Source: Klebsiella pneumoniae (lineage in GTDB: Bacteria; Pseudomonadota; Gammaproteobacteria; Eutrophobiales; Eutrophobiaceae). From it: DNA of 64,000 nt. Shown piece by piece: positions 27,601-47,226 of the stretch (its first letter is position 1; the number at the start of each line of letters is the position of its first letter). The translations under genes were made by a program, and so were the position numbers. The DNA is taken from contig CAMBTO010000001.1 of the NCBI GenBank assembly GCA_945870865.1, positions 79,487 through 143,486 on the forward strand. Direction: 5' to 3'. A model generated the notes under the pieces. The model was given only the letters and a program-made list of their open reading frames with translations, did no database searches and was not told the origin of the DNA.

Positions 27601-27783
27601 TGCCCCGGGATAGACGACAAACACACTGACAACAGGAAAGTCGACATCGGGCAATTCGCGGACTTCCACCAGGTTCATCGCCGCCAGTCCTGCCAACGCA
27701 ATCAGCAGGTTTGCCACCATCACCAGTACAGGACGACGTATACTCAGGCCGGGCAAGTCATTGATATCAAATGACATGATCAA
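24673..27783 (-). CDS. RND-family efflux transporter permease (AcrB/HAE-like)
   Basis: 1036 aa with 12-TM RND topology and two large periplasmic loops; the N-terminus MIMSFDI...FIRRPVLV... matches the AcrB family. Confidence 0.9.
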   Translation of the reverse strand: MIMSFDINDLPGLSIRRPVLVMVANLLIALAGLAAMNLVEVRELPDVDFPVVSVFVVYPGASPETIDTEVTSVIEGAVARVSGVKNISSSSEENVSRIRIEFQPGSDLDYAASDVREAVSRVQRRLPDRVEEINIIKADSDSQPIMNLSVYSDTLIEEDITRILEKDIMPELISIEGVADISLFGERNRVLRVVVDPLRLTSLGLSVSDVVDTLQRAPFDVPAGSFRSESQELVVRADASVYTAEQVANIIIRDNTRVGDVARVYFGPEDAQRYTRLNGRSVIAMGVIRKAKSNAIEISNNVRNTVDQLNERFDNIELVITNDDAEFIRSSVKEVLFTMLITVLIVIATIWMFMGSLRATLIPSIAIPISLIGTIAGIWLFGFSINILTLFALVLATGLVVDDAIVVLENILRRRKQHVGGRAAAVLGTRQVFFAVVTTTVVLISVFVPIAFLPGTAGRLFREFGFVLALAVAISSFVSLTLVPAMASRLPDTDSEKRPSGLMGRLGNLLIQLYTRSLGKTLDHPFIAILVALGLAAGAFSVYKQLDQELVPTEDRGMFRVNMSAPDGVGIGYMDQQTRKVEQVLAPMVDSGEVRSIFTIVGTYDPNRGSIIVPLADWSERDRSQQQIMRSLDSAFEQISGLQISVSGSNSLGMGRGGGNRLSVALIGNEYAEIYDAAKKFAATVEQTSDDLSSPEISYEPTQPQLLLEIDRRRASDLGINLDNLAETLRVMIDGDEVVDLNIQDESVPILLEASTEEINDPSDLVNLYVDTESGGLLPLSSVVKLREEGIASELPREAQRRAIEVDFDITPGFPLQTAIEQLNVIASDVLPANVSMILLGDAATLEETSRDVIITYIIALLVVFLVLCAQFEGFTSAIVVMLLVPFGIAAAIFALFLTGTSLNIYSQIGLVMLIGLMAKNGVLVVEFADQLRDRGYDIRKAIETGAVIRLRPVTMTILCTVLGGLPLILESGAGAEAAASIGWVVFGGLGMAAMFTLYLTPVLYLLLARFSKARAAETEQLVSELEYAESMKSKP

Positions 27784-28862
27784 CTCTCGATTTTTACGGT
27801 CCGGTCCATCTGTTCGTATTTCCCCTGCTCACGCATGGTATGTTCAACCTTGATACCTTCATACATACGCTGTACACCCTCAACCACTACCAGATCGGCT
27901 TCCGTCAGGCTCGCATCGACGAGTACCTGGCCCTGCTGACGCTGGATGATACGCACCGGGACCCGGCTGGCCTGGCCTGCACTGACCCGCCACACGTGTG
28001 AACCATCGGCACCCCACTGCACCGCTATTTCGGGCAGGACCGGAAACGACTTGCCCCGGATATCCAGACGGACCCTGAAACTCATGCCCGGCCTGAGTCT
28101 GTCGTCCTGGTTATCCACGCTCGCTCGCACAGTGAACGTTCTTGTCAGCGGATCGATACGGCTGCCGATATCTACGACCACACCCTCGGCCGCGGTGACT
28201 TCATCATTCCATGGATTGATGGCTATCTGTTCACCTGCCTTCAGCGTACCTACCATGATCTCAGGCACTTCAAAACTGATCAGCAACGCATCACGGTTAT
28301 CTATCGTAGTAATTACCGTTGACTGATCGACACGGTCACCCGGGTCAATCTCGGCTATGCCGACGTAGCCGGCAAATGGCGCTCGAATTATCCTGTCATC
28401 CAGTGCAATCTGTGCCTGCTGCAGTTCTACCTCGGCTGTTTCAAGTGCGGTCCCGGCCGCATCCAGCACAGTCGGTAATATTGCACCACTGCCTGCGGTA
28501 CGCTCATATCGCTCATATAATTTTTTGGCGTCTTCACGCCTTATTCGGGCGAGTTCGATCGCAAGCTTCTCATTACGTGCATCAAGCTGGACCAGCACGT
28601 CTCCCTTGCTGACACTCAGTCCCGGCCCGAAATTCACGGCAACCACTTCGCCAGACGCAAGCGGAGTAATAGTGACAGACTGGATGGCACGCGAGGTTCC
28701 GACCGCCTCTATACGGGTCAACTCATCGGAAAATCTGACCTGCTCAACTAGGACGGCAACTGTTTTATCAGCACCCCGTCCCCGGGCAGTCTCTGATGGT
28801 TCATTCGTGCATCCGGCCAGGACAAACAAGCCTACGAGGGCGATACCTGCAACTCTTAACAT
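27780..28862 (-). CDS. RND efflux periplasmic adaptor (membrane fusion protein), lipoprotein
   Basis: Lipobox LAGC; HlyD/MFP coiled-coil hairpin and beta-barrel domains; overlaps the permease start by 4 bp. The probable start is the Met at 28862. No outer-membrane factor gene is adjacent. Confidence 0.85.
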   Translation of the reverse strand: MLRVAGIALVGLFVLAGCTNEPSETARGRGADKTVAVLVEQVRFSDELTRIEAVGTSRAIQSVTITPLASGEVVAVNFGPGLSVSKGDVLVQLDARNEKLAIELARIRREDAKKLYERYERTAGSGAILPTVLDAAGTALETAEVELQQAQIALDDRIIRAPFAGYVGIAEIDPGDRVDQSTVITTIDNRDALLISFEVPEIMVGTLKAGEQIAINPWNDEVTAAEGVVVDIGSRIDPLTRTFTVRASVDNQDDRLRPGMSFRVRLDIRGKSFPVLPEIAVQWGADGSHVWRVSAGQASRVPVRIIQRQQGQVLVDASLTEADLVVVEGVQRMYEGIKVEHTMREQGKYEQMDRTVKIES

Positions 28863-29305
28863 ATTTTCTATCTTCTGTAGTAGTACTGTGAGATGGCATA
28901 TCATCAACACGCCTGACGACATGCATGCATATTAACCGCTGCAGGCCACAGGAAATATCGAATACGACCCTGACAGACCAATATTCACAATAAATCCACT
29001 ATTGCAGTTATTTATGTCACATAATATGCAGAATTAAATCGTAATGTACCCTGCGTGAAATTGCTGTGAAATTAGTGGCAGAGTAACAACGCGTTTATGA
29101 AACATACTAAATACTTTTTGACCCGACCCAGGCCTGACCACAGAAACCGGCATTAACTTCTATACTGGCCTGCACCAAAATAGATCCCCTGCCCTTAACG
29201 TATAACTTCCACGAGCGGATAGCACTGTTTCTGGGCAGCGTAGCCGTGCCTCTGCCCTGATTTATATACTGGCCACCACCTGCCGCTGATTTCCGTGCTG
29301 TTGTT

Positions 29306-29761
29306 TTGTTTCTCATGTCGAGGGTGCCGAACCGCTTTTTGTTATCAAAATTGAAGATTCTGAATGAATTCCGTCATATACAGCCCGGATGGAAACAAGT
29401 GTTGATAGCCATTGCCCTGAAAATGATCGGCCGGATCGGCACGTTTCTGGAATTGTTCCTGATACTCATCGTGCTTGATATCGATCCAGACTTTGTCGAT
29501 GTCGTGCTGGTCGAAGCGCTAGTTATGGTCAACGTCTGCCTGTTTTTCTTTATCCTACTGGAACTGGGTGTAAATGAGGCCGGCATCCTGGCCGATTTTT
29601 CCATCGCCGGACTTGCCGCAGCAAGTGGCATAGCGTTTGGTCTGCTGCGTCGAGCAAGAATGATTACCTATACGCTGACAGGCCTGTGCGTTTATGTGCT
29701 GGGTACGACTACCCGGTTTGGCAGCCAACCTTACCGTAATCAGGACCAGTCTTTACCCTGA
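29306..29761 (+). CDS. hypothetical small membrane protein (weak PsiE-like pattern)
   Basis: 151-aa ORF with hydrophobic segments and a faint resemblance to PsiE (ELVE.LVV..L.F..I.L). There is no strong RBS and it is uncertain. Confidence 0.3.
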   Translation: MFLMSRVPNRFLLSKLKILNEFRHIQPGWKQVLIAIALKMIGRIGTFLELFLILIVLDIDPDFVDVVLVEALVMVNVCLFFFILLELGVNEAGILADFSIAGLAAASGIAFGLLRRARMITYTLTGLCVYVLGTTTRFGSQPYRNQDQSLP

Positions 29762-29765
29762 AGGG

Positions 29766-30950
29766 TCAGCGGGACAGACCGACCAGCTCGGTAAATGCAC
29801 TGCACAGTCTCTCTATCTGTTCCGGTGTATGTGCTGCACTGAGGCTGCAACGTATCAACGGTCTCCCGTCCGGTGCGGCCGGAGGGAAGATCAGGTTCAC
29901 GTAAACCCCGCGTTCCATCAGCGCACTCCACAAGGTCACGGCCTGTGGTGGCGTATCCAGTTGGGCGGCTATTACCGGGCCGGCCACTGGCCCGACCCGA
30001 TATCCCTGTTCTTTCAAACAGGAATATAGCCGGTTTGCATTTATCCAGAGGCGTTCACGTAAATGGTTACCGTCACGCAGCAGTATCAATGCCGCCCGTG
30101 CAGAGGCAATATTCGATGGCGACGGGGATGCGGTAAAAATATAGGGCCGACTCAGATAACGCATCAAATCGAGTTGTTCATGGTTACTGACGCAATAGCC
30201 GCCGATACTGCCGAGACTCTTGCTGAATGTGCCGGTGATAAAGTCGACCTGATCGGTCACGCCGGTCTCTTCAACCAGACCCTGCCCGGTCCTGCCGAGC
30301 ACACCCAGTGAGTGCGCTTCATCTATCAGCATGTAACTTCCATGTGCCTTTGTGACATTGACCATTTCCGGCAACGGCGCCTTGTCACCGAGCATGCTGT
30401 AAATACCTTCAACAATGACCAGTGTTGACCGTGCTCGATCACCCAGACGGGCGAGCCTCTTGTCGAGGTCAGCGGCATCGTTGTGGCGGAACCGGATCAC
30501 TTCGGCGCCACTCAAACGACACCCGTCATAGATGCTGGCATGGCAGTGTGCATCTATCATTAATACATCACCCTGCCCTGCCAATCCGGAAATCGTGCCC
30601 AGGTTGCCCTGATACCCGGTTGAAAAGACCACGGCATGTTTGCAGTTGTAAAATTCTGCAAACTCCCGTTCCAGTGCGCGGTGGCCTTCATAATTTCCAT
30701 TGGCCATACGGGAGCCGGTCGTGCCGGTACCTTCTTCATCAATCGCCTTGTGTGCAGCAGCGATACATTCCGGCGCAAACGTCAGTCCGAGATAATTGTT
30801 CGTACCTGCCAGTAATACGCGTTTGCCAGCTATACTGGCCTCGGTTGCTGAATACATTTTTTCTATCGGTGTACCGAAGATCGATGGACGGATCTCAAGC
30901 AACGCCTTGCGGTCATCACCAAACACGGAAAATTTATCAAACAGATCCAT
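29766..30950 (-). CDS. spt: serine palmitoyltransferase-like alpha-oxoamine synthase (PLP-dependent)
   Basis: About 50% identity along its length to Sphingomonas SPT as I recall it (GTNNYLG, GSRM.NG, VVFSTGY.NLG, EVIRFRHND..DLDKRL, EGIYSMLGD.APL, IDEAHS.G, TFSKS PLP-lysine motif, RPYIFTAS, ERLW, GVYVN, IRCSLSAAHTPEQI). Confidence 0.85.
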   Translation of the reverse strand: MDLFDKFSVFGDDRKALLEIRPSIFGTPIEKMYSATEASIAGKRVLLAGTNNYLGLTFAPECIAAAHKAIDEEGTGTTGSRMANGNYEGHRALEREFAEFYNCKHAVVFSTGYQGNLGTISGLAGQGDVLMIDAHCHASIYDGCRLSGAEVIRFRHNDAADLDKRLARLGDRARSTLVIVEGIYSMLGDKAPLPEMVNVTKAHGSYMLIDEAHSLGVLGRTGQGLVEETGVTDQVDFITGTFSKSLGSIGGYCVSNHEQLDLMRYLSRPYIFTASPSPSNIASARAALILLRDGNHLRERLWINANRLYSCLKEQGYRVGPVAGPVIAAQLDTPPQAVTLWSALMERGVYVNLIFPPAAPDGRPLIRCSLSAAHTPEQIERLCSAFTELVGLSR

Positions 30951-31201
30951 TATTTTTCTGACTCTATACGTTCAATCATACGGGCAAGATCACTGACCAG
31001 TTGCACTTCGGCCATCAGGTTAAGTGGAATGGAGATATCAAACTCATCCTCGATTTCCATAATCAAATCCAGAATCTTCACTGAATCGAGCGCAAACTGA
31101 TCCACCAGATTTGTATCGGGTCGGATCTCGGCCCCTGACCCGGCAATGCGCTCGAGATGTTTGCTTATCCTTTGCAGTGTATTTTCATAATTGTCTGTCA
31201 T
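30950..31201 (-). CDS. dedicated acyl carrier protein
   Basis: 83 aa with the phosphopantetheine attachment context LDSV within a helical acidic protein. It is translationally coupled to the downstream SPT gene, sharing one nucleotide between stop and start. Confidence 0.8.
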   Translation of the reverse strand: MTDNYENTLQRISKHLERIAGSGAEIRPDTNLVDQFALDSVKILDLIMEIEDEFDISIPLNLMAEVQLVSDLARMIERIESEK

Positions 31202-31211
31202 ATCAATCCCG

Positions 31212-32138
31212 TCACTGTAGATTCAAAGGCAATACTGCCTCGTGTAACGCATCCTGTAATTGTCTCTTTGGCCGCCAGCCTGTCGCTCGCGTCAGCTTGT
31301 CTGAATCGCACACCCAGTCGGTATGCTGTAATTCACGTACCTTGCCTGGCGTCAACATCGGTGAATAACGGAACAAACGCGCCAGCGCAAGGTTCGCTCT
31401 GGCGACTGCGCTGATGATGCTGGCAGGGACAGGCAGACTGTGTACCGGTCGTGTCCAGACCTGACTTGCAATTTGTTTTACGGCGTCGTGATCATATCCC
31501 CCGGGCGTCCCATCATCAAGCTCATAGATTCCGGCAATCGGTTCGTCTGCATTCAACCAGGACAGAATTGCCTCGACCAGATCATTAACATACAGCAGGC
31601 CGAACCTTGAGGATTTCGCTCCGGTCAGTGGTAACAAGCCAAGGCGTGTCGCACGAAATATCGGTGCCATCTCGCGATCGCCTGGACCATAAACGGCAGT
31701 TGGTCGAAATATGGTCCACTGGTTCATTCCAGCGTGTCTTATCAGGTATTGTTCTGCCTGGAACTTGCTATCTGCGTACCATGACAGTTGTGGTTCGCGC
31801 GCTGCCAGCGAGGACATCAGCAGAAACCGTGCATGAGGAACCCTGCTTGATACCGAATCAAGCAGATTGGCGGTACCATCAAGATTGGTCTTCAGGAAGT
31901 CTGCTGATGAACTGCCACGGACGCGGCCGGCGCAGTGAATTACGTAATCTGTTTCAGCCACAAGTTGATACAGCGCATCTTTATCTTCAAGTGTGCCGGT
32001 AATCCAGTGCAGGTTTTTACTGTCGGCTTGTGGCTTTCGCGTTAGCGCACGGACTGCCCAGCCCGCGGAGGTCAATTTGTGTATCAGGTTTTTGCCGATG
32101 AAACCGGTGGCGCCGGTGACCGCCACGCGTCCTGACAT
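31212..32138 (-). CDS. NAD(P)-dependent epimerase/dehydratase-family reductase (candidate 3-ketosphinganine / ceramide reductase)
   Basis: Rossmann motif VAVTGATGFIGKNL and the extended-SDR catalytic Y..xK context (YADSK). Confidence 0.8.
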   Translation of the reverse strand: MSGRVAVTGATGFIGKNLIHKLTSAGWAVRALTRKPQADSKNLHWITGTLEDKDALYQLVAETDYVIHCAGRVRGSSSADFLKTNLDGTANLLDSVSSRVPHARFLLMSSLAAREPQLSWYADSKFQAEQYLIRHAGMNQWTIFRPTAVYGPGDREMAPIFRATRLGLLPLTGAKSSRFGLLYVNDLVEAILSWLNADEPIAGIYELDDGTPGGYDHDAVKQIASQVWTRPVHSLPVPASIISAVARANLALARLFRYSPMLTPGKVRELQHTDWVCDSDKLTRATGWRPKRQLQDALHEAVLPLNLQ

Positions 32139-32141
32139 GTA

Positions 32142-33899
32142 TCAGTAACGGGCGTCCGGCTGGGCTGATTGCTGGCTGCTGGGGAATCCGGTCCTTTTCA
32201 TGAAGCCCTGACATGCGGCTGCGCGTGACAGTTTTCCTGAAGAGGTGCGCGGAAGTGTATGTGGAGGCACTAGCTCAACCAGACAATGTACGCCGAATGC
32301 AGTGTATACCAGTCTCTGTAATCGGCTCATCAGGGCCTGACGTTCCTGAACAGCTGTCAGGCGGCATTCTATGACAAGCACAACAGTTGAAACATCGTTT
32401 GCATCAACAACAGCAAACGCCGAGGTCTCGCGCATCCTGATCTCCGGCTGTTGCTCCGCGATTTCTTCAATGTCCTGGGCGCGAATATTACGGCCATTGA
32501 TTATGATAATGTCCTTGTGACGACCGGTCAGATACAGATTGCCCTCAGATACAAAACCGAGATCACCGGTGTCCATCCAGTTGTCAGGCTTCATCACCCG
32601 GCTGGTTGTCTCCGGGTCATTGATATACCCGGACATGATACTGGGCCCTTTCAGCATGACGCGACCCACACGCAGATCCGGTAAAGCCTGGCCCTGACCA
32701 TCGACAATCGAAACAAAGTGACCCGGTAAGGGTCTGCCACAATTGACAAATTCGTTATGTTTTCTACCCTCTGCCTGTACACGCACAGCAACCCCACGTT
32801 CAGCCAGCGCCTCTGTATCTACCTTCATCACGTCCAGGCCTGTTCCCACCCTAGAGAAGGTCACTGCGAGAGAGGCTTCAGCAAGTCCGTAACATGGCAG
32901 GAAAGCCAACGGGTTGAATCCGACTGATTCAAATTTACTGGCGAAATTTTTCAGTACATCAGGCCGGATCATCTCGGCACCAATACCAGCAGCACGCCAG
33001 CTGCTCAGATCCAGACCTTCCAGATCCGCGCTACGCACCCTGAGGGCACACAGTTGCAGACCAAAAGGCGGACAAAATGCGATCGTGCAACGGTTACGAC
33101 TGATTAATCTGAGCCACTGGATCGGACGAACAGCGAAATCGCGGGTACGCAGGAAATCTACTGACAACTGCGAGACCAGTGGGGACAGGACCAGGCCAAT
33201 CAATCCCATATCATGGTAAAACGGCAACCAGGATGCACAGCGATCACTCGGGTATATGGCAAGCCCGTCACGGACGATACCTTGCAGGTTACTCATGATG
33301 GCCAATTCGGTGATGATGACGCCCTGCGGTGCGCGGGTACTACCGGAGGTAAACTGCAGATAGGCTATCTCGTCCCGCCGACTTTTCTGCATCGGCAGAT
33401 CCGATTCGGGAAGCTGCGCCAGCTGTCCCGGCGTACCGGTCCAGCGCACACTGCCTACCTCCCGGCTGGCCTCTTCAAGAAAAGATATAAAGTCCTTGTT
33501 TGCAATTGCCATGCTGGCATTGCTAATGTTGAGCATGGCACCTAACTGCCGAACATATATGTCGTGGCTACCCAGATTGACAGGTATAGGCATGGCAAAT
33601 GGAACCAGACCCGCATAGCGACAGGCAAAAAACAGGATAATAAACTCGGGGGATGTGTCTGCAATAATCGCGATAGTTTCTCCGCGTTTCAGGCCGAGAC
33701 CCAGCAAACGTCTTGCTGTAGAAATCGCGTCCTGGCGCAGTTGCTTGTAGGTAAGCACTTGCCTGAGCACGCCCCGTGCATCATAGAAGTTGTAGCCGGT
33801 CGACCCTGTTGCAGCATAGTCGAGCGCATCCGTCAGTGTCTCGAAGTCCGCCAGTCGCTGTGACAAAAGGTTCAGCGTTCCGGTTGGTTCAAGAACCAC
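32142..33899 (-). CDS. fatty acyl-AMP ligase / acyl-ACP synthetase (adenylate-forming enzyme)
   Basis: AMP-binding core motifs (FTSGSTRAPQGV, ...YGLAE..., TGD.G); 585 aa; first gene of a tight four-gene operon with 3-10 bp gaps. Confidence 0.85.
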   Translation of the reverse strand: MVLEPTGTLNLLSQRLADFETLTDALDYAATGSTGYNFYDARGVLRQVLTYKQLRQDAISTARRLLGLGLKRGETIAIIADTSPEFIILFFACRYAGLVPFAMPIPVNLGSHDIYVRQLGAMLNISNASMAIANKDFISFLEEASREVGSVRWTGTPGQLAQLPESDLPMQKSRRDEIAYLQFTSGSTRAPQGVIITELAIMSNLQGIVRDGLAIYPSDRCASWLPFYHDMGLIGLVLSPLVSQLSVDFLRTRDFAVRPIQWLRLISRNRCTIAFCPPFGLQLCALRVRSADLEGLDLSSWRAAGIGAEMIRPDVLKNFASKFESVGFNPLAFLPCYGLAEASLAVTFSRVGTGLDVMKVDTEALAERGVAVRVQAEGRKHNEFVNCGRPLPGHFVSIVDGQGQALPDLRVGRVMLKGPSIMSGYINDPETTSRVMKPDNWMDTGDLGFVSEGNLYLTGRHKDIIIINGRNIRAQDIEEIAEQQPEIRMRETSAFAVVDANDVSTVVLVIECRLTAVQERQALMSRLQRLVYTAFGVHCLVELVPPHTLPRTSSGKLSRAAACQGFMKRTGFPSSQQSAQPDARY

Positions 33900-34247
33900 A
33901 GATGTTTCGCTTAAAAGCTGACCACCTTCAGTATCTGCTGAAAGCGTCTCTAATTTACTTATTTCTGATATCAGAGTTAATACTCCTCATAGAAATGCGT
34001 TCTATCCCGCTGATAATATAAAGGATTTATATACAAATTTCCAGTATTTCTTCGTTTAGCCTCTCATCCACGCAACAAAGAGACATTTTGAGTACAACGC
34101 CATTTTTTCAAAAAGGCGGAGTTTAAAGTATTCTGCATATCTGATGCTAGTATTATTTAACAGCTAGATTACAACCCACGGCAATTTGCGGGCTACTGGC
34201 TACCACACCTGCTGATATCACCAACTGGCAATTGTCTTGTATCTAGC

Positions 34248-35492
34248 GTGTTATCCCCCCTGTTTTCGCGGGTTGATATGAATAATTATGTTACTCTTGA
34301 CGTCATTTTTCATCCTCTGGACTGCATCTTGAATATGGGTCTGACAGCTAGAAAACAAACAACCTCGACGTCAGTAGACGTCAGGCCAGTGCTGACGGGA
34401 AGAGACTGGCGGACTTTCATCAATTTACCCTGGTATATCTATCAGGACGACGCCAACTGGGTACCACCACTACGACTTGAACGTCGCCTGCATTTTTCGA
34501 GGATGAACCCATACTTCAGAAATGCTGAGTGGCAAGCCTGGATAGCCTACAAGGACAACAGGCCGGTCGGCAGGATCAGCGCCCAGGTTGATAGGGTTAA
34601 CCGTCAATATCATGGAGAACATACCGGTCATTTTGGTCTGCTAGAGGGCATTAATGACCCTGCCGTGTTCGCCGCCTTGACCCAAACCAGTGAAGAATGG
34701 CTGTCTCAGCGTCAGACTCACCATATTTCCGGCCCATTCAGCTTTTCCATTAACCAGGAGTGCGGGGTGCTGGTTGACGGTTTTGATACTCCGCCGGTCA
34801 TACTTATGCCCCACTCGCGCCAGTGGTACGGGCTGATGCTGGAACAACAGGGTTACACACCGGCAATGGACATGCTCGCCTACTGGATTGAAACCGGATT
34901 TGAAGCATCTCGCGTTATGAAAACACTGGTGGCAAGGTTTGACAAACGTATACATCTGCGTCATTTGCGCCGCAAACAGTACTCAGAGGAGATGGAAATC
35001 CTGCGTGATATTTTTAACGACGCCTGGTCAGGTAACTGGGGATTTATCCCGTTCAGCAAGGAGGAGTTTGCTGATCTTGGTAACAGTCTGCGATTTTTTA
35101 TTGCGGACGACTTTGTGCAGATAGCTGAACTCGATGGCAATCCGGTCGCGTTTGTCGTGGTACTGCCCAACCTTAACGAGATGCTCACCCGGCTGGACGG
35201 CAGCTTGTTTCCATTGGGATGGTACCGCTTGTACCGCGCGATGAGACAGAAAAGCTTCCGTACCGGCCGCGTACCGCTGATGGGAGTACGTAAACAGTAC
35301 CAGAACAGCTCGCTGGGGCTGACCCTGGCACTGATGGTCTGTAATGCTGCACGGGTCTGTGCACGGGCGACAGGAATTGAAGCGGTTGAAATGTCGTGGA
35401 TACTCGAAAACAACCGGGGCATGCGCAGCATACTCGATAATATTGGCAGCAAGGAGTACAAACGTTTCCGCATTTATGAAAAGTCTCTGTAA
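34248..35492 (+). CDS. GNAT-fold-like acyltransferase of unknown specificity; candidate bacterial ceramide synthase
   Basis: 414-aa ORF, divergently transcribed from the SPT operon. Its C-terminal half has acyl-CoA N-acyltransferase-like segments (FVVVLPNLNEM...RQKSFRTGRVPLMGV...). The assignment is by context, not by a recognised motif. Confidence 0.5.
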   Translation: MLSPLFSRVDMNNYVTLDVIFHPLDCILNMGLTARKQTTSTSVDVRPVLTGRDWRTFINLPWYIYQDDANWVPPLRLERRLHFSRMNPYFRNAEWQAWIAYKDNRPVGRISAQVDRVNRQYHGEHTGHFGLLEGINDPAVFAALTQTSEEWLSQRQTHHISGPFSFSINQECGVLVDGFDTPPVILMPHSRQWYGLMLEQQGYTPAMDMLAYWIETGFEASRVMKTLVARFDKRIHLRHLRRKQYSEEMEILRDIFNDAWSGNWGFIPFSKEEFADLGNSLRFFIADDFVQIAELDGNPVAFVVVLPNLNEMLTRLDGSLFPLGWYRLYRAMRQKSFRTGRVPLMGVRKQYQNSSLGLTLALMVCNAARVCARATGIEAVEMSWILENNRGMRSILDNIGSKEYKRFRIYEKSL

Positions 35493-35570
35493 CTCTACTG
35501 GCCCTGAGTTCGACAGGCTTGTGTCAGTCAACAATGATGTTCAAGTCTGTCACCTGGAAATCTGTCTGCC

Positions 35571-36653
35571 GTGAAAACACTGGGGCGATACATTAGTATA
35601 GAGATCTTCCGACCATTTGTGGTTATCAGCCTGATTCTTGCCGGATTGTTTTCCAGCTTTAATGCCGCGCGTTATCTTGAGACGGCCGTAACAGAATCAC
35701 TGGGAATGTCTCTGATCTTCAAACTGATAATGCTTAAAACCGTCATTGCCATGGAGGTACTGTTTCCGATCGCGTTCTACGCAGCCATTATCGTGGCACT
35801 TGGCCGTATGCATAGGGACCAGGAAATTATCGTAATGAAGTCGGCCGGTATAAATGAAACCTTCCTCATTAAAACTGTTATCACACTGGGTATACCAGTC
35901 GCAATCATGACAGGCATGTTGTCAATGTACGGCAGGCCATTGGCATACGACACTATCTACAGAATGGACAATAACGCCAGTAACGAGCTGGATGTGGATC
36001 GTTACCAGGCAGGACGGTTCTACGGTATCGAAAACAGTGGTCGTATCATCTATATCAACAGCAGAAACAACCGTGACCACATGCTTGAAGGCGTATTTCA
36101 CTACATCCGTCAGGACAACCGTAGTGATATTATCCTTGCCCGACAGGGCTACCAGGTCCGGAAAGGGCAATATCAACCACCGGAACTGCACCTGCTTGAT
36201 GGCAGCCTGTACCGTATCGTTCCTGGCGGCTCACGTGAATCAATAATCCATTTTTCCAGGTTTGTTTTCATTCCGGATGCAGACATAGCGATTGACTATC
36301 AGCGCAAGGCGGCACCAACACTGGACCTCGGGGACTCTGTCGACAGCCGCGACATTGCTGAATTCCAGTGGCGAATCTCCAGACCGTTCGCCACGATGTT
36401 ACTGGCGCTGGTAGCGATACCGCTAAGCCGAACCGCCCCGCGACAGGGCAAGGGAGAAAAGGCGGTCTCTGCTGCTGTAATTTTTGCCCTCTACTACAAC
36501 CTGAGTGGTCTGGCCCAGACCTGGGTCGAGCAGGGTACTGTTGGCAGCGTGCCCGGTGTATGGTGGCTGCATATGAGCATGCTTGTTTTTGTGATATGGG
36601 TACTTGCACCCGGATTTTCCAGAAAACCTGCCGGTGCACATGTACATACTTGA
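35571..36653 (+). CDS. lptF: LPS export ABC transporter permease LptF
   Basis: YjgP/YjgQ family with a GTG start; MKTLGRYISIEIFRPFVVISLILAGLF... and a periplasmic beta-jellyroll between TM3 and TM4. Confidence 0.85.
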   Translation: MKTLGRYISIEIFRPFVVISLILAGLFSSFNAARYLETAVTESLGMSLIFKLIMLKTVIAMEVLFPIAFYAAIIVALGRMHRDQEIIVMKSAGINETFLIKTVITLGIPVAIMTGMLSMYGRPLAYDTIYRMDNNASNELDVDRYQAGRFYGIENSGRIIYINSRNNRDHMLEGVFHYIRQDNRSDIILARQGYQVRKGQYQPPELHLLDGSLYRIVPGGSRESIIHFSRFVFIPDADIAIDYQRKAAPTLDLGDSVDSRDIAEFQWRISRPFATMLLALVAIPLSRTAPRQGKGEKAVSAAVIFALYYNLSGLAQTWVEQGTVGSVPGVWWLHMSMLVFVIWVLAPGFSRKPAGAHVHT

Positions 36654-37704
36654 TCGATATCTGATGAAGCAGGTTGCGCAAGGGATTGTTATCTCTACGC
36701 TGGTATTACTGCCCCTGTTCAGCTTTCTGGATCTGGTCGACCAGCTGGATGATGTGGGCACCGGCTTTTACCGCACCAGTGATGCATTCCTGTATGTTGT
36801 CATGACTCTGCCGCGCAGGTTTATCCAGCTGACCCCGTTTATTGCATTGCTTGGAAATGTGACGGCACTCGGCAGACTTGCGATTAACCATGAGCTGATC
36901 TCCCTGCGTTCAGCCGGATATTCTCCGGTACAGATCAGCATGGCATCTTTGAAGGTGGGACTCGTGCTGCTGGCGCTGATTTTTACACTTGAAATATATA
37001 TTGCGCCCCCGCTGCAACAAAAGGCCATTGCCCATCGTGCGGCGGCGATGGAACAAAGCGCCGAACTTGGAAAAAATCTGGGTATCTGGACCCGGAATGA
37101 CCGGCAGATCCTGCGCATAGGCAATTTGCAGCATGATACCAGACAGGCAAGTGTTGAAATTATCAATCTTGATGAACAGGGAAACATGTCTGAATATTTA
37201 CATGCTGAAGGTTTCGAGATCGCCAGCAATGAAGAATGGATATTGCACCAGGTAACGCGCAAGATATATACTGAGGACAACATCCGGTCGACCACGATGG
37301 ATCGATTGCCCTGGAATACCTTTCTGAATCCCGCCCAGATATCAACACTGACCAAACCACAGGAAAGCCTGTCTCCGGTCGAACTTTTCCGCTATGTCCA
37401 GCATTTACAGTCAACCGGGCAGGAAGTCGATGTATACCAGCTGTCGCTGTGGAAAAAACTGGGCGGACCACTAACGATGCTGGGGATGTTGTTGTTATCG
37501 GTACCGTTCGTGTTTGGTTCGGTTCGTACAGGTTTTGCGAACCGGCTGGTAATGGCGGGCGTTACCGGAATAACCGTCTATCTGCTCGACCAGATCTTTT
37601 CCAACACCGGGCTGATATTGAATCTGAATCCTTCGTTTATCGCGTTGACGCCTGGCATACTTTTGATCTGGATAGCACGGGTCTGGTTACGGCGTGTCCC
37701 CTGA
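36640..37704 (+). CDS. lptG: LPS export ABC transporter permease LptG
   Basis: MYILDRYLMKQVAQGIVISTLVLLPLFSFLDLVDQLDDVG: the canonical LptG N-terminus. It overlaps lptF by 14 bp. Confidence 0.85.
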   Translation: MYILDRYLMKQVAQGIVISTLVLLPLFSFLDLVDQLDDVGTGFYRTSDAFLYVVMTLPRRFIQLTPFIALLGNVTALGRLAINHELISLRSAGYSPVQISMASLKVGLVLLALIFTLEIYIAPPLQQKAIAHRAAAMEQSAELGKNLGIWTRNDRQILRIGNLQHDTRQASVEIINLDEQGNMSEYLHAEGFEIASNEEWILHQVTRKIYTEDNIRSTTMDRLPWNTFLNPAQISTLTKPQESLSPVELFRYVQHLQSTGQEVDVYQLSLWKKLGGPLTMLGMLLLSVPFVFGSVRTGFANRLVMAGVTGITVYLLDQIFSNTGLILNLNPSFIALTPGILLIWIARVWLRRVP

Positions 37705-37736
37705 TTATTTTCATGTCTGAATAACTGAACCCTTTT

Positions 37737-38720
37737 ATGTACATATCAGCTGCTGACAAGTTATACCCACAAAATACGGCCATTTTACTGAACCCGCATG
37801 GCGGCAGGATACGCAAACGCCTGGGTCGCATACGCGAGCTCGCAGCGGCAATACCCGGTGCAATCGTGTGCGAAACAGACAATCTCGCAGACATGAACAG
37901 GACCCTTGATGAGCTGGCAGAACGCGGCGTGGGTCATCTGGTGATCGCCGGTGGTGATGGAACGGTGCAGGCCGTGCTGAACCGCCTGTTCACCGGCAAA
38001 CTCTGGTCCCGCCTGCCACTGGTCAGTATAGTCCCTGGTGGAACAACGAATATGACAGCATCTGATCTTGGTACATCCAGCAACCCTGAAAAGTGTCTGC
38101 AACAACTGGGCAGATGCCTGCAGAACGCAATGGATGTCAGGCTGGTAACGCGATCTGTTTTGAAAATCCGGCAGAATCAACAGCCGGATATTCATGGCAT
38201 GTTTTTCGGTGCCGGTTTGATAGCGCACGGTTCTGCATATTTTCACAAGCATATAAAAAAGTCCGGGCTAACCGGTGAGTCCGGTTCTGCTTTTGTGATG
38301 CTGCGTATGCTGTCAGGACTGCTGACTGGCCGCAATGCAGACGAGCGTGCCCAAATCCGGATCCAGATAACGGATGACACCGGTCACACCAGGGTATGCA
38401 ACTCTATGTTGCTGTTTACCAGCACGCTGGATCGCTTGCTGCTCGGGCTACGTCCGTATTGGGGTGGTGGTAATGGAGCTATCCATACTACCTGCCTGCG
38501 CGAGCATCCTCTCCGGTTGTGGCGATCGTTACTGACCATCGTTTGTGGTCGTGGCAACTCCCTGGACGAAAATAACGGTTATTACAGCAGAAATAACAGT
38601 GCAATTGAGCTGCTTATGGACGCCAGCTTTATTGTTGATGGTGAGTTTTTTGTTTGCGAAAGCAGGCATGGTCCGCTCAGGATTAGCCAGGCTGGCCCGG
38701 TCCGCTTTTTACTCCCCTGA
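37737..38720 (+). CDS. diacylglycerol-kinase-catalytic-domain lipid kinase (YegS / sphingosine-ceramide-kinase-like)
   Basis: DAGK_cat signature HLVIAGGDGTVQAVLNRL and a preceding NP.GG motif (LLNPHGGR). Confidence 0.8.
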   Translation: MYISAADKLYPQNTAILLNPHGGRIRKRLGRIRELAAAIPGAIVCETDNLADMNRTLDELAERGVGHLVIAGGDGTVQAVLNRLFTGKLWSRLPLVSIVPGGTTNMTASDLGTSSNPEKCLQQLGRCLQNAMDVRLVTRSVLKIRQNQQPDIHGMFFGAGLIAHGSAYFHKHIKKSGLTGESGSAFVMLRMLSGLLTGRNADERAQIRIQITDDTGHTRVCNSMLLFTSTLDRLLLGLRPYWGGGNGAIHTTCLREHPLRLWRSLLTIVCGRGNSLDENNGYYSRNNSAIELLMDASFIVDGEFFVCESRHGPLRISQAGPVRFLLP

Positions 38721-38746
38721 AATCCTCATGAGTATCATTCCGTAAC

Positions 38747-39706
38747 ATGCCCACTACTGACACCCGGTTACCACTAGGACTGATTAACGCGATTGCCCTC
38801 CAGTGTGAGCGTCCAGCAGGCATTGAAGCCGCGCTGCTTGCAAACAACATCCGGCAACGATTTGGGGATTCACTGCTTGCCGTCATTCTCTATGGTTCCT
38901 GCCTGCGTACGCATCTTTATACCGAGGGTGTGGTTGATTTATATGTGGTCGTTAACAGTTATCAGCAGGCCTACAGCGGTCATACGCTGCGTTATTTGAA
39001 TGCGGCCTTACCTCCGAATGTTTTTTATATCGAGATTAACAACAATGAAACTATCATCCGCGCAAAATACGCTGTCATTTCAGCACGTGACCTGGAGCGG
39101 GGCTGTGGCCAATGGTTCCACTCCTATATCTGGTCACGCTTTGCCCAGCCCGTCGTCCTGTTGTATGTACGCGATCCACTGACGCGTGAGCATATTTATA
39201 AAAATCTGGCCTGCGCGGTATTGACCTTACTCAGCACCACGCTACCTGCGCTCGGACCAGGCAAGGTGGACCATGCTGCAATCTGGCAGAACGGATTGGC
39301 CCTGACCTATGCAGCGGAATTGCGCCCTGAACGCCACACAAGGGCACGTGATATCACAGCGCAAAATCTGGATGACTTTGGCATCCTGATCAGAAAGGCG
39401 GCACCAGCGCTTGTTACACTGATGTTTACTGATGAAGACGACCTTTATGAAAGGCTTAGCGGGCAGACCGAAAGATCGCGGGCGACCAGATTATGGCGGA
39501 TTCGACGCTGGCAAGGATTTTTACTTTCAGTATTACGCTTGTCAAAAGCGGCCTATACCTTTCGTGACTGCGTGGATTATGCCGCCTGGAAGATCGAACG
39601 TCATACGGGTATACGCATCCACGTGACCCCGACCCTGCAACGACACCCTATCCTGTTCGGCTTTAGTGTATTATGGCAACTGATTAAAAGGGACGTACTA
39701 CACTAG
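38747..39706 (+). CDS. Tam41/Mmp37-like CTP-dependent nucleotidyltransferase (phosphatidate cytidylyltransferase-like)
   Basis: NTase-fold G-S...D.Y.VV (ILYGSCLR...DLYVVV), followed by a block VFYIEINNNETIIRAKYAVISARDLERGC..WFHSYIWSRFAQPVVLL. This block parallels the yeast Tam41 region VYFNPF..I....VKYGVVS..LL.D...W..LYLAGRLQKPVKIL as I recall it. Confidence 0.6.
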   Translation: MPTTDTRLPLGLINAIALQCERPAGIEAALLANNIRQRFGDSLLAVILYGSCLRTHLYTEGVVDLYVVVNSYQQAYSGHTLRYLNAALPPNVFYIEINNNETIIRAKYAVISARDLERGCGQWFHSYIWSRFAQPVVLLYVRDPLTREHIYKNLACAVLTLLSTTLPALGPGKVDHAAIWQNGLALTYAAELRPERHTRARDITAQNLDDFGILIRKAAPALVTLMFTDEDDLYERLSGQTERSRATRLWRIRRWQGFLLSVLRLSKAAYTFRDCVDYAAWKIERHTGIRIHVTPTLQRHPILFGFSVLWQLIKRDVLH

Positions 39707-39746
39707 ATCCCGGCGCTTAGTTGAACACAGGAAACGCGAGCAGACC

Positions 39747-40517
39747 ATGTCGGAAACAGAGTTGAAACAATCAGACCTAACACAGCCCCCGCGTCGTAGA
39801 CGCAACCGACCCAGTGTGGCCATCGGCAAGTGGGTACTCCAGCATATCGAACGTGCGTTGATCCGTTATTCCATTGTCGCTGACGTTCCAATATTTGATG
39901 CGCACCAGTTTGCCTGGACAGCCCCGCTGGAAGCAGACTGGAAAAAAGTACGCCAGGAACTTGATATGATCCTGAAAAGCCAGGTCAAACTGCCAAACTT
40001 TCAGGACATTTCAAAAGACCAGACCAACATTACCCAGGATGACCGCTGGAAAACCTTTTTCCTGTACGGCTATGGCTACAAGATGCCGAGCAATTGCGAT
40101 CTGTGTCCGGAGACAACCCGTATTATCGAGTCTGTCCCCGGCATGTTGACCGGTTTTTTTTCGGTACTGGCGCCGGGCAAACACATACCTCCACATCGCG
40201 GGCCCTATAAAGGTCTGTTACGCTGCCATCTTGCCTTGCAGGTACCGGAGCCAGCGGATCAGTGCTGGATTAAGGTAGGTGATATGTCTGCCAACTGGCA
40301 AGAAGGGCACTGTCTAGTATTTGATGATACCTATGTACATCAGGTCCAGAATAATACGGAGGGTACTCGTGTTGTTCTGTTTCTGGATATAATCCGGCCT
40401 ATGCGTTTCCCCGGGTCCTTACTGAACAGGATCGTTATCTGTTTGATACGTATGTCTCCGTTTATACAGGACGCGATCCGCAACCAGCGAGCCTGGGAAT
40501 ACAGGATTGGTACCTGA
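39747..40517 (+). CDS. aspartyl/asparaginyl beta-hydroxylase-family Fe(II)/2-OG dioxygenase (LpxO/OlsC-like lipid acyl-chain 2-hydroxylase candidate)
   Basis: ...LAPGKHIPPHRGPYKGLLRCHLALQVP...CWIKVGD....W.EG.CLVFDD.Y.H.V.N....RVVLFLDI: the conserved AspH-family core. Confidence 0.8.
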   Translation: MSETELKQSDLTQPPRRRRNRPSVAIGKWVLQHIERALIRYSIVADVPIFDAHQFAWTAPLEADWKKVRQELDMILKSQVKLPNFQDISKDQTNITQDDRWKTFFLYGYGYKMPSNCDLCPETTRIIESVPGMLTGFFSVLAPGKHIPPHRGPYKGLLRCHLALQVPEPADQCWIKVGDMSANWQEGHCLVFDDTYVHQVQNNTEGTRVVLFLDIIRPMRFPGSLLNRIVICLIRMSPFIQDAIRNQRAWEYRIGT

Positions 40518-40590
40518 ATGTGTTACCCGAATCAGGTGGTAGCTTCTGAACCAGCAGTAGATTCCTGGAAACGATTTTAAATAACGGGAT

Positions 40591-42720
40591 TCAACTTTTT
40601 TCACCCGGTAATGGCGTCTCGGCGGCAGCCTTTACTGAACGCGTCAACCTGAGATAGTTATTGTAAAGTGTGCTTATCTCGCGCACATAAGCAACAGTCT
40701 GCCCACATTGACAATCGCGCACAGTTTCCCCCTTGTTCTTGTAGGGTCTGGACATCTTCAACATGGCGAGCTCGACATTATTAAACCAGCGGTTTTTGTC
40801 CAGATTCATCTTTTCTGCCAGTCTTCTTGCCCGCTGCACGCGGTTATAGCCTGTATTATACGCGGCTAGTGCAAACCACAACCGATCTGACAGCGGCAAC
40901 TTCTCTTCAAACTGGCTGCGTAGGCGGTCCAGATACAGTACGCCTGCATGGATACTGTTGTCCGGGTTGTTCAGGTCACCCACACCAATAGTTTTCGCCG
41001 TTGCCGGCAGCACCTGCATCAGGCCAGACGCTCCGGAGGACGAAACCGCACGTGGATTAAACTGGCTCTCCTGGTACATCAAGGCTACGATCAAACGCCA
41101 GTCAAAACTGAAATGGTCCGCATACTTGTGCACGATATCATCATAGGGAGAGAGCTGATCTATACTGGCAAACAGACTGGAATCGGTATTTCTCAAATCG
41201 GGTTTTTCGATATATCTTGAATAGATAACGTTATAAAAACCCTTGCGGTATTCGGTTTCGATAAATTTATTCAACTCGGTCAGCAATTGTGAATCGGCCT
41301 GACGCACCAGCCATACCAGTGGATCGGACTCACCCAGCGAGAGTAACGTCTTCAGGTTCCTCTGACGCGAAAATTCCGCATTGACCTCATGACTACCTAT
41401 GACGGTCAGGTCATAGATTCCACGGGCAATACCAAATAACAAGGCCTCTGAGGTAACACCGGAATTTGCTACCTGTATTGTAACGTTGATGCCCTGATCC
41501 CGGATCCGTTCCAGCATGGGCAAATAGGGGCTGGATGCTGACAGGTGGATAACGCGGCCTGCCAGATCATGCACATCAGTCAGGCTCACATCCTCGCGCC
41601 CGACTATGACGGCAGAGGCATGATTATAGGGTATCGTTGCTGCAGTATGGGCCATGGTCGGCGTCAGAATGGCAGGCACAGAGGCCGCAATTACATCACC
41701 ATTACCCTCATTCAGATACTGATGCATTTCTGCCGTGGTGTCAGCAATGACCACATCAAGGCGCATGCCGTGGCGATCGGCAAACTTTTTGATCAGATCA
41801 TACTCGAATCCACGTAACCGCCCTCGGTCAAGGTAATAATTGACCGGTCCCCGAGAGGTCACCAGACGCAACATCTTGCGTGTCTTCAGGTCAGTGAAGT
41901 CCTCCCGATAACTTTTTGCCGTCTCCAGCTCAAGGTGCTTTTTATTCAGGAACCGGTTAAGCGATGACTGCAACTGAACAGCATCTCCCCGCACGGCCCA
42001 GTTCAAAAACATGTCCTCGGACAGGTCCATCAACACAGCCAGGTTATAGCTGAAATCCAGATCAGAGGGTATTTGCAGACTATCCACCACGGCCAGGTCA
42101 TAGCGACCGATCCTGACTCGATCAAATACTGTATAGACATCCTCATTGTCAGCGATGCTGACCAGCTGCATACCCGGGTGTTTATGGTCCAGCGAGGACA
42201 ATAATGGCCAGACCGGTGAGGTCGGACGAACGGCGATTTGCCTTTCTGTCAGGTCTGAGAGCGACTTCAGCGGCTGACTGCCCGACCTGCCTATGACCTG
42301 GCGCCGTGAAACTGCCCAGGGTAGTGTATAGAGGATCTCCCCTTCGGCGCCGCCAACTACCGGGGCACGCAAGGCAGCGACCATATCAGCCTCACCGTCC
42401 TCCAGCTTTTCACTCAGGCTGTTAATGTCTGCAACCGGGATCCAGCGTTGGGTCAGACCCTCGCCCAGGGCAAACTGATCCAGCAGGGCTGTTTCTTGTG
42501 CGCTGATTTCCGGCGCTCCCGGCCAGACCGGGATCAGGATGCGCAGTTGAGGCAGCGCGTCTGTTCCAGGTTTTACAGGAACCTGATTTGGGACTGATGC
42601 TAGCTTGGTTGTCTCCAGTACAGCATCCCGCCTTTTGGTCGGAAAACTGGAGAACGCGAAAACCAGCAGGACAACGGGGACTACTAAACGAAACAAAATG
42701 GGTATGGCTCGATTATACAA
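40591..42720 (-). CDS. mltF: membrane-bound lytic murein transglycosylase F-like (tandem periplasmic solute-binding domains plus C-terminal SLT domain)
   Basis: N-terminal signal/anchor, two SBP_bac_3-like domains, and an SLT catalytic region (...ESQFNPRAVSSSGASGLMQVLPATA...AYNTG). Confidence 0.8.
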   Translation of the reverse strand: MYNRAIPILFRLVVPVVLLVFAFSSFPTKRRDAVLETTKLASVPNQVPVKPGTDALPQLRILIPVWPGAPEISAQETALLDQFALGEGLTQRWIPVADINSLSEKLEDGEADMVAALRAPVVGGAEGEILYTLPWAVSRRQVIGRSGSQPLKSLSDLTERQIAVRPTSPVWPLLSSLDHKHPGMQLVSIADNEDVYTVFDRVRIGRYDLAVVDSLQIPSDLDFSYNLAVLMDLSEDMFLNWAVRGDAVQLQSSLNRFLNKKHLELETAKSYREDFTDLKTRKMLRLVTSRGPVNYYLDRGRLRGFEYDLIKKFADRHGMRLDVVIADTTAEMHQYLNEGNGDVIAASVPAILTPTMAHTAATIPYNHASAVIVGREDVSLTDVHDLAGRVIHLSASSPYLPMLERIRDQGINVTIQVANSGVTSEALLFGIARGIYDLTVIGSHEVNAEFSRQRNLKTLLSLGESDPLVWLVRQADSQLLTELNKFIETEYRKGFYNVIYSRYIEKPDLRNTDSSLFASIDQLSPYDDIVHKYADHFSFDWRLIVALMYQESQFNPRAVSSSGASGLMQVLPATAKTIGVGDLNNPDNSIHAGVLYLDRLRSQFEEKLPLSDRLWFALAAYNTGYNRVQRARRLAEKMNLDKNRWFNNVELAMLKMSRPYKNKGETVRDCQCGQTVAYVREISTLYNNYLRLTRSVKAAAETPLPGEKS

Positions 42721-42933: not shown

Positions 42934-43602
42934 CTAACTTCTTGTGGCAAGCAGGCTGTCAAGCTGTATAAGCCGCTCCGGTGTCCCGATGTCGAACCAT
43001 CTACCCTTGAAATATTGACCGCTGACTTGCTGGTTCAACATCGCCTGTTTTAATAACGGAACCAGTGAAAAGAGCTGGGGATCGGTCCCGGAAAAAATCT
43101 GAGGGTCATAAACCCCTATGCCACTATAGGTCTGTAAGGTCTGCCCGGTTGTCGATAACAGGCCGTCCGTCAAGGCAAAATCACCGCCAGAGTTATGCGG
43201 TGGGTTATCCACCATAATCAGATGGGCCAGTCCTCCCGGGTAGGCAGGCAGGCTGCGGTAATCAAACTCGGTCCAAATATCACCGTTGACCAGAATAAAC
43301 GGCGCGTCCCCCAGCAGTGGCAAGGCCTTGCGGATACCCCCACCGGTTCCCAATGGCTCATCGCCTTCGTGGGAATAGTGGATATGGACCCCGAAACTGT
43401 CACCCTCGCGAAACCAGGCCTGTATCATCTCACCCAGCCTGCCGGTGTTTATTACAATCTTATCTACCGAGGCAGCCACAAGCGACTCTATATGATACTG
43501 CAATAAGGGTTTACCGCCGACCTGCAACAGGGGTTTGGGCGTATGCAAACTCAACGGCATCATCCGCGCTCCCTTGCCTGCAGCCAGTATCATCGCTTGC
43601 AT
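42934..43602 (-). CDS. murU: N-acetylmuramate alpha-1-phosphate uridylyltransferase-like nucleotidyltransferase
   Basis: MQAMILAAGKGARMMPLSLHTPKPLL.VGGKPLLQYHIESL...HYSHEGDEPLGTGGGIRKALPLLGDAPFILVNGDIWTEFD: near-colinear with Pseudomonas MurU as I recall it; 222 aa. Confidence 0.75.
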   Translation of the reverse strand: MQAMILAAGKGARMMPLSLHTPKPLLQVGGKPLLQYHIESLVAASVDKIVINTGRLGEMIQAWFREGDSFGVHIHYSHEGDEPLGTGGGIRKALPLLGDAPFILVNGDIWTEFDYRSLPAYPGGLAHLIMVDNPPHNSGGDFALTDGLLSTTGQTLQTYSGIGVYDPQIFSGTDPQLFSLVPLLKQAMLNQQVSGQYFKGRWFDIGTPERLIQLDSLLATRS

Positions 43603-45291: not shown

Positions 45292-45315
45292 AACAAAACC
45301 CTTCCGGAGATAATC

Positions 45316-46402: not shown

Positions 46403-46446
46403 ACTTCCCTTTTATCGCTCACTGAAATACGACTGCTACTAAGATT

Positions 46447-47172: not shown

Positions 47173-47226
47173 ATATTTTTACAGTAAATGACAAATATTG
47201 CGCGGTTTTTGCATTAAACTAATCTT

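Follow-up and report, generated by a model that had tools for sequence, protein, structure and literature searches.

The closest described counterparts of the gene analysed here are the ceramide synthase bCerS of Caulobacter crescentus (CCNA_01212 / CC_1154), YghO of E. coli (ECD_02850 in BL21; 'protein YghO' in RefSeq) and Neut_1100 of N. eutropha. Rhodobacterial dihydroceramide synthesis has yghO/ECD_02850, CC_1154 and Neut_1100 assigned as its acyl-CoA N-acyltransferase genes, with yghO as the N-acyltransferase member of the sphingolipid cluster in E. coli B (PMC9386255). Neut_1100 is further listed as the orthologue of CC_1154 in a betaproteobacterium (41% identity, E 5e-105; PMC11324152 Table S2D). 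Enzyme activity has been shown for the Caulobacter bCerS only, which is reported to be a cytoplasmic peripheral membrane protein (PMC11087976). Elsewhere in the Caulobacter pathway, CC_1160 is a ceramide kinase (PMC11324152, PMC10331486), CC_1161 is necessary for ceramide phosphoglycerate to be formed (PMC11324152), and genes of the CC_1153 and CC_1159 types are needed for ceramide diphosphoglycerate. The order of N-acylation and CerR reduction is debated (PMC11087976, PMC11324152).

The stretch of DNA analysed here, 64 kb in length and hereafter the window, carries an ORF at 34248-35492 that a sequence-only reading had pointed out as divergent from a set of ceramide genes and as the probable N-acyltransferase missing from their pathway. 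The open frame is real, has thousands of homologues and lies on the opposite strand to aasR-cerR-acpR-spt (29766..33899, minus strand). We refer to it as cerS. It heads a row of six co-directional genes that are separated by 26-79 nt or joined by small overlaps. Its neighbours are as follows.

29766..30950, minus strand: spt, serine palmitoyltransferase (NF047599 600 bits, cutoff 500; 54% identical to Spt of the E. coli island)
30950..31201, minus strand: acpR-like specialised acyl carrier protein (PP-binding; 42% identical to the ACP of the E. coli island)
31212..32138, minus strand: cerR-like NAD-dependent epimerase/dehydrogenase, a putative ceramide reductase (Pfam Epimerase; 43% identical to the gene in the E. 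coli island)
32142..33899, minus strand: aasR-like fatty acyl-AMP ligase (acyl-ACP synthetase), heading the putative divergent spt operon (NF006624 826 bits; 46% identical to the FAAL of the E. coli island)
35571..36653, plus strand: LptF-family permease, probably an LptF2-type paralogue (PF03739, TIGR04407)
36604..37704, plus strand: LptG-family permease, probably of the LptG2 type (Pfam and NCBIfam profile matches)
37737..38720, plus strand: DAGK_cat lipid kinase, orthologous to CC_1160, the ceramide kinase of Caulobacter (Pfam; E 2e-20 to an ORF of the Caulobacter-MAG locus)
38747..39706, plus strand: Tam41/Mmp37-like protein, orthologue of CC_1161 (E 7e-33 to a Caulobacter-MAG ORF; 53% identical to the N. 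briensis protein)
39747..40517, plus strand: Asp/Asn beta-hydroxylase-family protein (OlsC/LpxO-like), the last gene of the row (PF05118 181 bits)

In Caulobacter, as in the window, bcerS adjoins lptF2/lptG2 and lies near spt. The two loci differ in gene order: in Caulobacter it is lptF2-lptG2-cerS-CC_1153, eight genes from spt (PMC11324152), whereas the window cerS comes ahead of lptF/lptG and diverges directly from aasR-cerR-acpR-spt. The divergence of the window gene is shared by yghO of E. coli strain 746 (lptF-lptG-spt-ACP-epimerase-FAAL <-> yghO). The E. coli island, however, has its extra lptF-lptG pair beyond spt, while the window pair comes after cerS, and yghO is followed by glcC, with no kinase, Tam41 or hydroxylase genes next to it. 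In N. briensis and at Neut_1100 of N. eutropha, cerS heads a row with lptF, lptG, a DAGK_cat kinase and a Tam41-like gene, as it does in the window. The N. briensis order (cerS, NTP_transf_3, lptF, lptG, CDP-OH_P_transf, DAGK_cat and an unannotated Tam41-like gene) is the one published for N. eutropha Neut_1100-1106 (PMC11324152 Table S2D). These Nitrosomonadaceae clusters contain CC_1153-type (NTP_transf_3) and CC_1159-type (CDP-OH_P_transf) genes and lie apart from spt; the window cluster, in contrast, lacks both types, carries an Asp_Arg_Hydrox gene in their place and borders on the spt operon.

Relationship to the bCerS/YghO family

A database search with the window protein returned 6814 homologues at E<=1e-3, among them Nitrosospira and Nitrosomonas proteins of about 60% identity that are labelled 'N-acetyltransferase' or 'hypothetical'. 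The Caulobacter reference gene was located via the cloning primers EK1199/EK1200 for bcerS (ccna_01212; PMC11087976 supplement). A Caulobacter vibrioides genome yielded the locus when queried with the forward primer, and in it both primers bracket a single ORF (L003:2150-3301) that encodes 384 amino acids. The window protein aligns with the Caulobacter enzyme over 380 of 385 residues at 41% identity and 59% positives, with 3 gaps (E 2e-103). YghO, found because a short match at the DNA level in E. coli genomes falls inside yghO, is 46% identical over 373 residues (E 2e-136), and the homologue from the cerS cluster of Nitrosospira briensis is 60% identical. Ten sequences, among them the Caulobacter enzyme and members labelled alpha, beta and gamma, align with about 110 columns invariant and without indels on the scale of a domain.

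The likeness to the Caulobacter bCerS extends from end to end. The two proteins are of nearly the same length (384 residues and, in the gene models preferred below, 385-387) and share invariant motifs that include a C-terminal YEKxL, and neither has a transmembrane (TM) segment (PMC11087976). The window protein is an orthologue of bCerS, and its gene very probably encodes an ordinary full-length bacterial ceramide synthase of the bCerS/CerS/YghO family. Within the 64-kb window we found no second bCerS paralogue.

The sequence-only reading could place no motif of the protein in a known family and saw GNAT-like segments in its C-terminal part. The first statement is correct for Pfam and NCBIfam but not beyond them, given the full-length orthology to bCerS and YghO. 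Pfam Acetyltransf_1 matches residues 251-389 of the 414-residue ORF weakly (21 bits, cutoff 20.7), NCBIfam gives no match, and neither library has a model for the bCerS family, which is why the protein looks like an orphan. As the Caulobacter bCerS is also unmatched in both Pfam and NCBIfam, the silence of these libraries says nothing about the window protein. The suggestion that the gene could represent a new lineage is not supported: the alignments place the enzyme as an ordinary member of an already known family, in which Neut_1100 and yghO/ECD_02850 had been assigned previously (PMC9386255; PMC11324152).

Extent of the cerS coding sequence

The gene is genuine, but the 414 amino acids originally ascribed to its product are probably 27-29 too many. 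We compared the 5′ regions of the window gene and of four relatives (L009, L010, L011 and L004) whose proteins are 76-94% identical. The features of this region and the competing gene models are the following.

34248..35492, plus strand: maximal ORF of the earlier reading, GTG, 414 codons, of which the first 27 are probably a 5′ leader
34287..34313, plus strand: conserved upstream DNA block TATGTTAYYCTTGMCNNCATTTTT(C)CAT, near-invariant over about 27 nt in the five-sequence alignment
34319..34321, plus strand: Shine-Dalgarno-like GGA, 7 nt 5′ of TTG 34329, its columns invariant in the five-sequence alignment
34329..35492, plus strand: cerS (bCerS/YghO-family ceramide synthase), preferred model, TTG start, 387 amino acids
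34335..35492, plus strand: cerS, alternative model, ATG start, 385 amino acids

A single aligned column is NTG in all five sequences (TTG at 34329 in the window, then TTG, GTG, GTG and ATG), and in each of them an invariant GGA precedes it by 7-8 nt. Upstream of 34329 the sequences are kept as DNA, with no shared protein extension: lineages differ in frame through an indel of 1 nt in a T-run of the upstream block, and the extension is for this reason not conserved as protein. Furthermore, characterised or assigned cerS homologues measure 380-386 amino acids. Considering (i) the aligned NTG with its GGA, (ii) the non-conserved extension and (iii) the length of the homologues, we prefer the coding sequence 34329..35492; the likely cerS product thus has 387 residues, or 385 if translation starts at 34335.

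Were the 414-residue product of GTG 34248 real, it would carry a novel, clade-specific N-terminal extension. The frame is uninterrupted from 34248, and gene callers give close relatives 400-436 amino acids. Against this, the indel breaks the frame across lineages within an otherwise conserved block, the NTG and its GGA motif are conserved at 34329, and the bases ahead of 34248 contain, by eye, no evident Shine-Dalgarno-like sequence. The long form is therefore improbable, and the 414-residue gene model is probably an over-extension of the shorter cerS preferred here. Antisense ORFs at 34641-35534 were treated as shadows of the conserved sense frame.

The conserved upstream block has a coding potential of its own. 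In the window, the ATG at 34288 opens an upstream ORF (uORF) of 14 codons (MLLLTSFFILWTAS*), which occupies 34288-34332 and whose TGA overlaps the TTG start. This ATG lies in the cerS frame in L010, L011 and L004, but in a different frame in the window and in L009. The block or the uORF could control the translation of cerS, a speculation that we rate, jointly with that on the lipid product of the cluster discussed at the end, as doubtful. Promoter and terminator scans of 29000-41000 did not rise above the shuffled expectation (15 versus 13.1, and 16 versus 10.9). An Rfam scan of 28800-41000 gave one sub-threshold chance match only, and the intergenic repeats were trivial.

Neighbouring genes and the acyl acceptor

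The layout of the locus is conserved in relatives of 76-82% identity, which have an RND pump, spt, ACP, cerR and aasR on one side and, divergently, cerS, lptF, lptG, the kinase, the Tam41-like gene and the hydroxylase on the other. In these relatives, as in the window, the hydroxylase is followed by mltF, murU, kdsD, kdsC and lptC.

The lptF and lptG genes of the window are probably the paralogues of the sphingolipid-locus type. The window LptF shares 32% identity with LptF of the E. coli island, compared over its C-terminal part as the gene is cut by the locus, versus 24% with the canonical E. coli LptF; for LptG, the corresponding values are 34% (island) and 28% (canonical). These pairwise identities favour the assignment but do not prove it. 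Both proteins pass the cutoffs of TIGR04407/TIGR04408, which nevertheless leaves the choice between paralogue and canonical protein undecided because RefSeq names the E. coli island pair LptF/LptG too. The true start of LptG likely lies about 12 codons downstream of 36604, as its relatives have 354 amino acids.

The DAGK_cat kinase is 45% identical to the kinase of the N. briensis cluster. Genes of the CC_1153 and CC_1159 types are absent from the window cluster. A nucleotidyltransferase gene at 42934-43602 was considered as an orthologue of CC_1152 (CpgD) and rejected, as it encodes MurU (NF045761 273 bits).

The hydroxylase that ends the row is kept at the same position in L004, L005 and L011 and is a candidate acyl 2-hydroxylase for ceramide. 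Its likeness to OlsC and LpxO also raises the possibility that the cerS product is a bCerS-family paralogue whose substrate for N-acylation is a different amine lipid or metabolite, such as the precursor of an amino-acid lipid, and the identity of only 41% to the characterised enzyme points in the same direction. The hydroxylase, however, scores below the cutoffs of both the OlsC model (261 bits, cutoff 450) and the LpxO model (144 bits, cutoff 500). Moreover, the window protein has no OlsB-type acyltransferase domain in Pfam, nor in NCBIfam, and its alignment with bCerS runs over the full length with no domain change. The gene context likewise argues for ceramide: the five ceramide genes are all grouped together, and the orthologues of the ceramide kinase and of CC_1161 are co-directional with cerS. 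An amine other than the long-chain base is thus very unlikely as the acceptor, although an identity of 41-46% leaves room for an altered acyl donor or acceptor. For a role of the cerS product in ceramide synthesis, as its N-acyltransferase, homology and synteny provide good support.

Predicted fold and proposed pathway

A search of PDB sequences with the window protein found nothing significant (best E 0.13) and no bCerS structure. We built an AlphaFold2 model on an alignment of 52 sequences (mean pLDDT 83.1, pTM 0.80) and compared it with the PDB using Foldseek. The top matches are all tandem-GNAT acyltransferases and extend over the full length of the protein (E 4e-14 to 2e-11). The best of them are MAB_4324 (7q3a, E 4e-14), a Clostridium GlcN N-acetyltransferase (5kf1), a tandem GNAT of the clavulanate pathway (2wpw) and MshD (1ozp); FemX, MprF/L-PGS and N-myristoyltransferase (NMT) rank lower. 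Since these matches span the entire protein, both halves are GNAT-like and not the C-terminal part alone, where the sequence-only reading had noted the resemblance. That reading had named a non-acyltransferase fold as grounds for giving up the assignment, and the predicted fold is that of an acyltransferase. The two domains, numbered on the 385-residue model, are these.

34374..34892, plus strand: N-terminal GNAT-like domain, residues ~14-186 (AlphaFold2, Foldseek and invariant columns)
34950..35489, plus strand: C-terminal GNAT domain, residues ~206-385 (weak Pfam Acetyltransf_1 match, model and invariant residues)

The N-terminal domain contains the most conserved motif of the family, GPFxxSINQExGxLVxGFDTPP, which is predicted as a loop of low confidence and may become ordered only upon binding of the substrate or the membrane. 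The C-terminal domain carries the family version of the beta4-alpha3 segment (R312, P314-L-M-G-V318 and K320 ... G328), which we infer to be the acyl-CoA-binding site. No TM helix is predicted in the window protein (maximum 19-residue Kyte-Doolittle hydropathy 1.42), which is basic (pI 9.2) and has a mass of about 45 kDa. The predicted absence of TM segments and the pI fit a soluble or peripheral protein that lacks TM helices and a signal peptide, and bCerS is itself reported to associate peripherally with the membrane on the cytoplasmic side (PMC11087976).

MAB_4324 (7q3a), MshD (1ozp) and the C. acetobutylicum GlcN N-acetyltransferase (5kf1) share the two-GNAT fold (E of about 1e-14 to 1e-11), and the tandem-GNAT structures superimpose on the window model with TM-scores of 0.53-0.62 (query-normalised) at 9-15% sequence identity. 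The MshD/5kf1/MAB_4324 type uses acetyl donors and soluble acceptors and is a fold analogue from a different family. That the cerS product is likewise an acetyltransferase for a soluble small molecule or sugar amine, with the lipid genes as mere neighbours, is highly improbable: such enzymes are its best structural matches and 7q3a gives a weak sequence match (E 0.19), but the 9-15% identity compares with 41-46% to bCerS and YghO, and synteny with spt is kept from Alphaproteobacteria to E. coli.

Eukaryotic Lag1/CerS enzymes, which carry a TLC domain, catalyse the same pathway reaction, N-acylation of the long-chain base. They are, however, unrelated polytopic membrane proteins, whereas the window protein has no Pfam match to the TLC/TRAM-LAG1-CLN8 domain, no TM helices and a GNAT fold. 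Bacterial and eukaryotic ceramide synthases are described as convergent by Stankeviciute et al. 2022, as cited in PMC11087976.

Combining these data, we propose the following pathway for the locus. AasR would load a fatty acid onto AcpR, and the condensation of acyl-AcpR and serine by Spt would yield 3-ketosphinganine. By analogy with the Caulobacter bCerS, the cerS product would be a soluble, basic tandem-GNAT enzyme acting at the cytoplasmic face of the inner membrane, where the long-chain base made by Spt would receive from it, on the C2 amine, a fatty acyl group taken from an acyl thioester. The donor could be acyl-CoA, as named for the Caulobacter enzyme, or acyl-ACP. Acylation would yield 3-oxo-ceramide, to be reduced by CerR, or dihydroceramide if the reduction comes first. 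The ceramide kinase and the Tam41-like protein would then phosphorylate and decorate the ceramide, the OlsC/LpxO-like protein would probably 2-hydroxylate it, and the LptF/LptG paralogues may export the lipid together with LptB (bioRxiv 10.64898/2026.04.12.717747).

The cluster of this clade may be a distinct variant, in which cerS-lptF-lptG-cerK-Tam41 is joined by the hydroxylase, CC_1153 and CC_1159 types are missing and an RND pump follows spt. As the hydroxylase is present and the two gene types are absent, the product could be a 2-hydroxyacyl ceramide-phosphate lipid not yet described, which the cluster would both make and export; together with the uORF control considered above, this remains a tentative idea that we think unlikely to hold as a whole.

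For the gene itself, the analysis replaces the annotation 'hypothetical protein / N-acetyltransferase' with 'bacterial ceramide synthase (bCerS/YghO family)' and has little significance beyond annotation. As there is no Pfam-A or NCBIfam model for the family, its members keep appearing as orphans to sequence-only readers and pipelines. At the level of the locus, a betaproteobacterium-like organism carries a complete and compact set of ceramide and phospho-sphingolipid genes, and the cluster variant, with a hydroxylase and without CC_1153/CC_1159 types, may be of interest for the mapping of bacterial sphingolipid head-group diversity.

A putative sphingolipid-specific LptF/LptG pair

The ceramide synthase gene cerS is followed on its own strand by genes for two Lpt permeases, and a canonical lpt cluster is encoded further along:

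35571-37704 (+), LptF/LptG pair
43791-48693 (+), canonical kdsD-kdsC-lptC-lptA-lptB-rpoN cluster, about 3 kb past the sphingolipid genes

Both members of the pair score above the NCBIfam LptF/LptG equivalog cutoffs, unlike Caulobacter LptG2, which just misses its cutoff (224 vs 240); the Caulobacter LptF2 ORF is cut at the edge of the locus. The window proteins share 32-34% identity with the extra LptF/LptG of the Escherichia coli sphingolipid island, where the island LptF gene is cut by the locus and LptF was compared over its C-terminal part only, versus 24-28% with canonical E. coli LptF/LptG. By these comparisons, the pair probably represents sphingolipid-specific LptF2/G2. The short distance to the lpt cluster places the genes for the shared ATPase LptB and for the bridge components near the LptF/LptG paralogues.

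In the RefSeq/PGAP annotation of this E. coli island (L007, strain 746, NZ_CP023353.1 827405-841490), the pair is labeled ‘LPS export ABC transporter permease LptF/LptG’ and ‘protein YghO’ is the only name given to the ceramide synthase. Automated annotation thus fails to tell the sphingolipid paralogues of Lpt proteins apart from the canonical forms, and it leaves bCerS unnamed.

The region downstream of spt and the block preceding cerS

The divergent spt operon is bordered by the following features:

24673-28922 (−), RND efflux pump (AcrB-type, weak MMPL match) and periplasmic adaptor, co-directional with spt and directly downstream of it
29306-29761 (+), 151-aa ORF in the interval separating spt from the RND adaptor gene

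The pump and adaptor occupy the same position in the related locus L004, and in Myxococcus an MmpL transporter lies downstream of spt (bioRxiv 10.64898/2026.04.12.717747). The RND pump is possibly a lipid exporter, and adjacency alone is also possible. The match of the 151-aa ORF to Pfam LPG_synthase_TM is confined to the C-terminal part of the model (positions 177-299 of 302), and L004 contains only a 260-bp gap in its place. The ORF appears to be either a truncated remnant or a small insertion.

Within the window region 34287-34332, the cerS start is directly preceded by a near-invariant block of about 27 nt, which is common to four relatives’ loci (L009, L010, L011 and L004) and has no recognisable counterpart in N. 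briensis. Owing to a 1-nt indel within the block, its ATG begins a 14-codon uORF in the window and L009, while in L010, L011 and L004 it shares the cerS frame (MLSLPAFF...). The product of the window uORF is MLLLTSFFILWTAS, and its TGA overlaps the preferred cerS start, TTG 34329. The block may act as a promoter or operator, encode a leader peptide, or supply an alternative N-terminus.

Candidate hydroxylation and the end product of the pathway

The cerS row closes with the following gene:

39747-40517 (+), Asp/Asn beta-hydroxylase family, OlsC/LpxO-like, under both curated cutoffs

A gene of this family is kept at the end of the row in three relatives, and the window gene is a candidate ceramide acyl 2-hydroxylase. 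In our literature search, no paper connected bacterial sphingolipid loci with this family.

In Nitrosospira, Nitrosomonas and Caulobacter (comparison including loci L006 and L003), cerS is accompanied by CC_1153-type (NTP_transf_3) and CC_1159-type (CDP-OH_P_transf) genes, whereas both are absent from the cerS cluster (34248-40517) and from the window as a whole. Ceramide diphosphoglycerate requires genes of both types; the end product of the pathway encoded here may be ceramide phosphate or phosphoglycerate.
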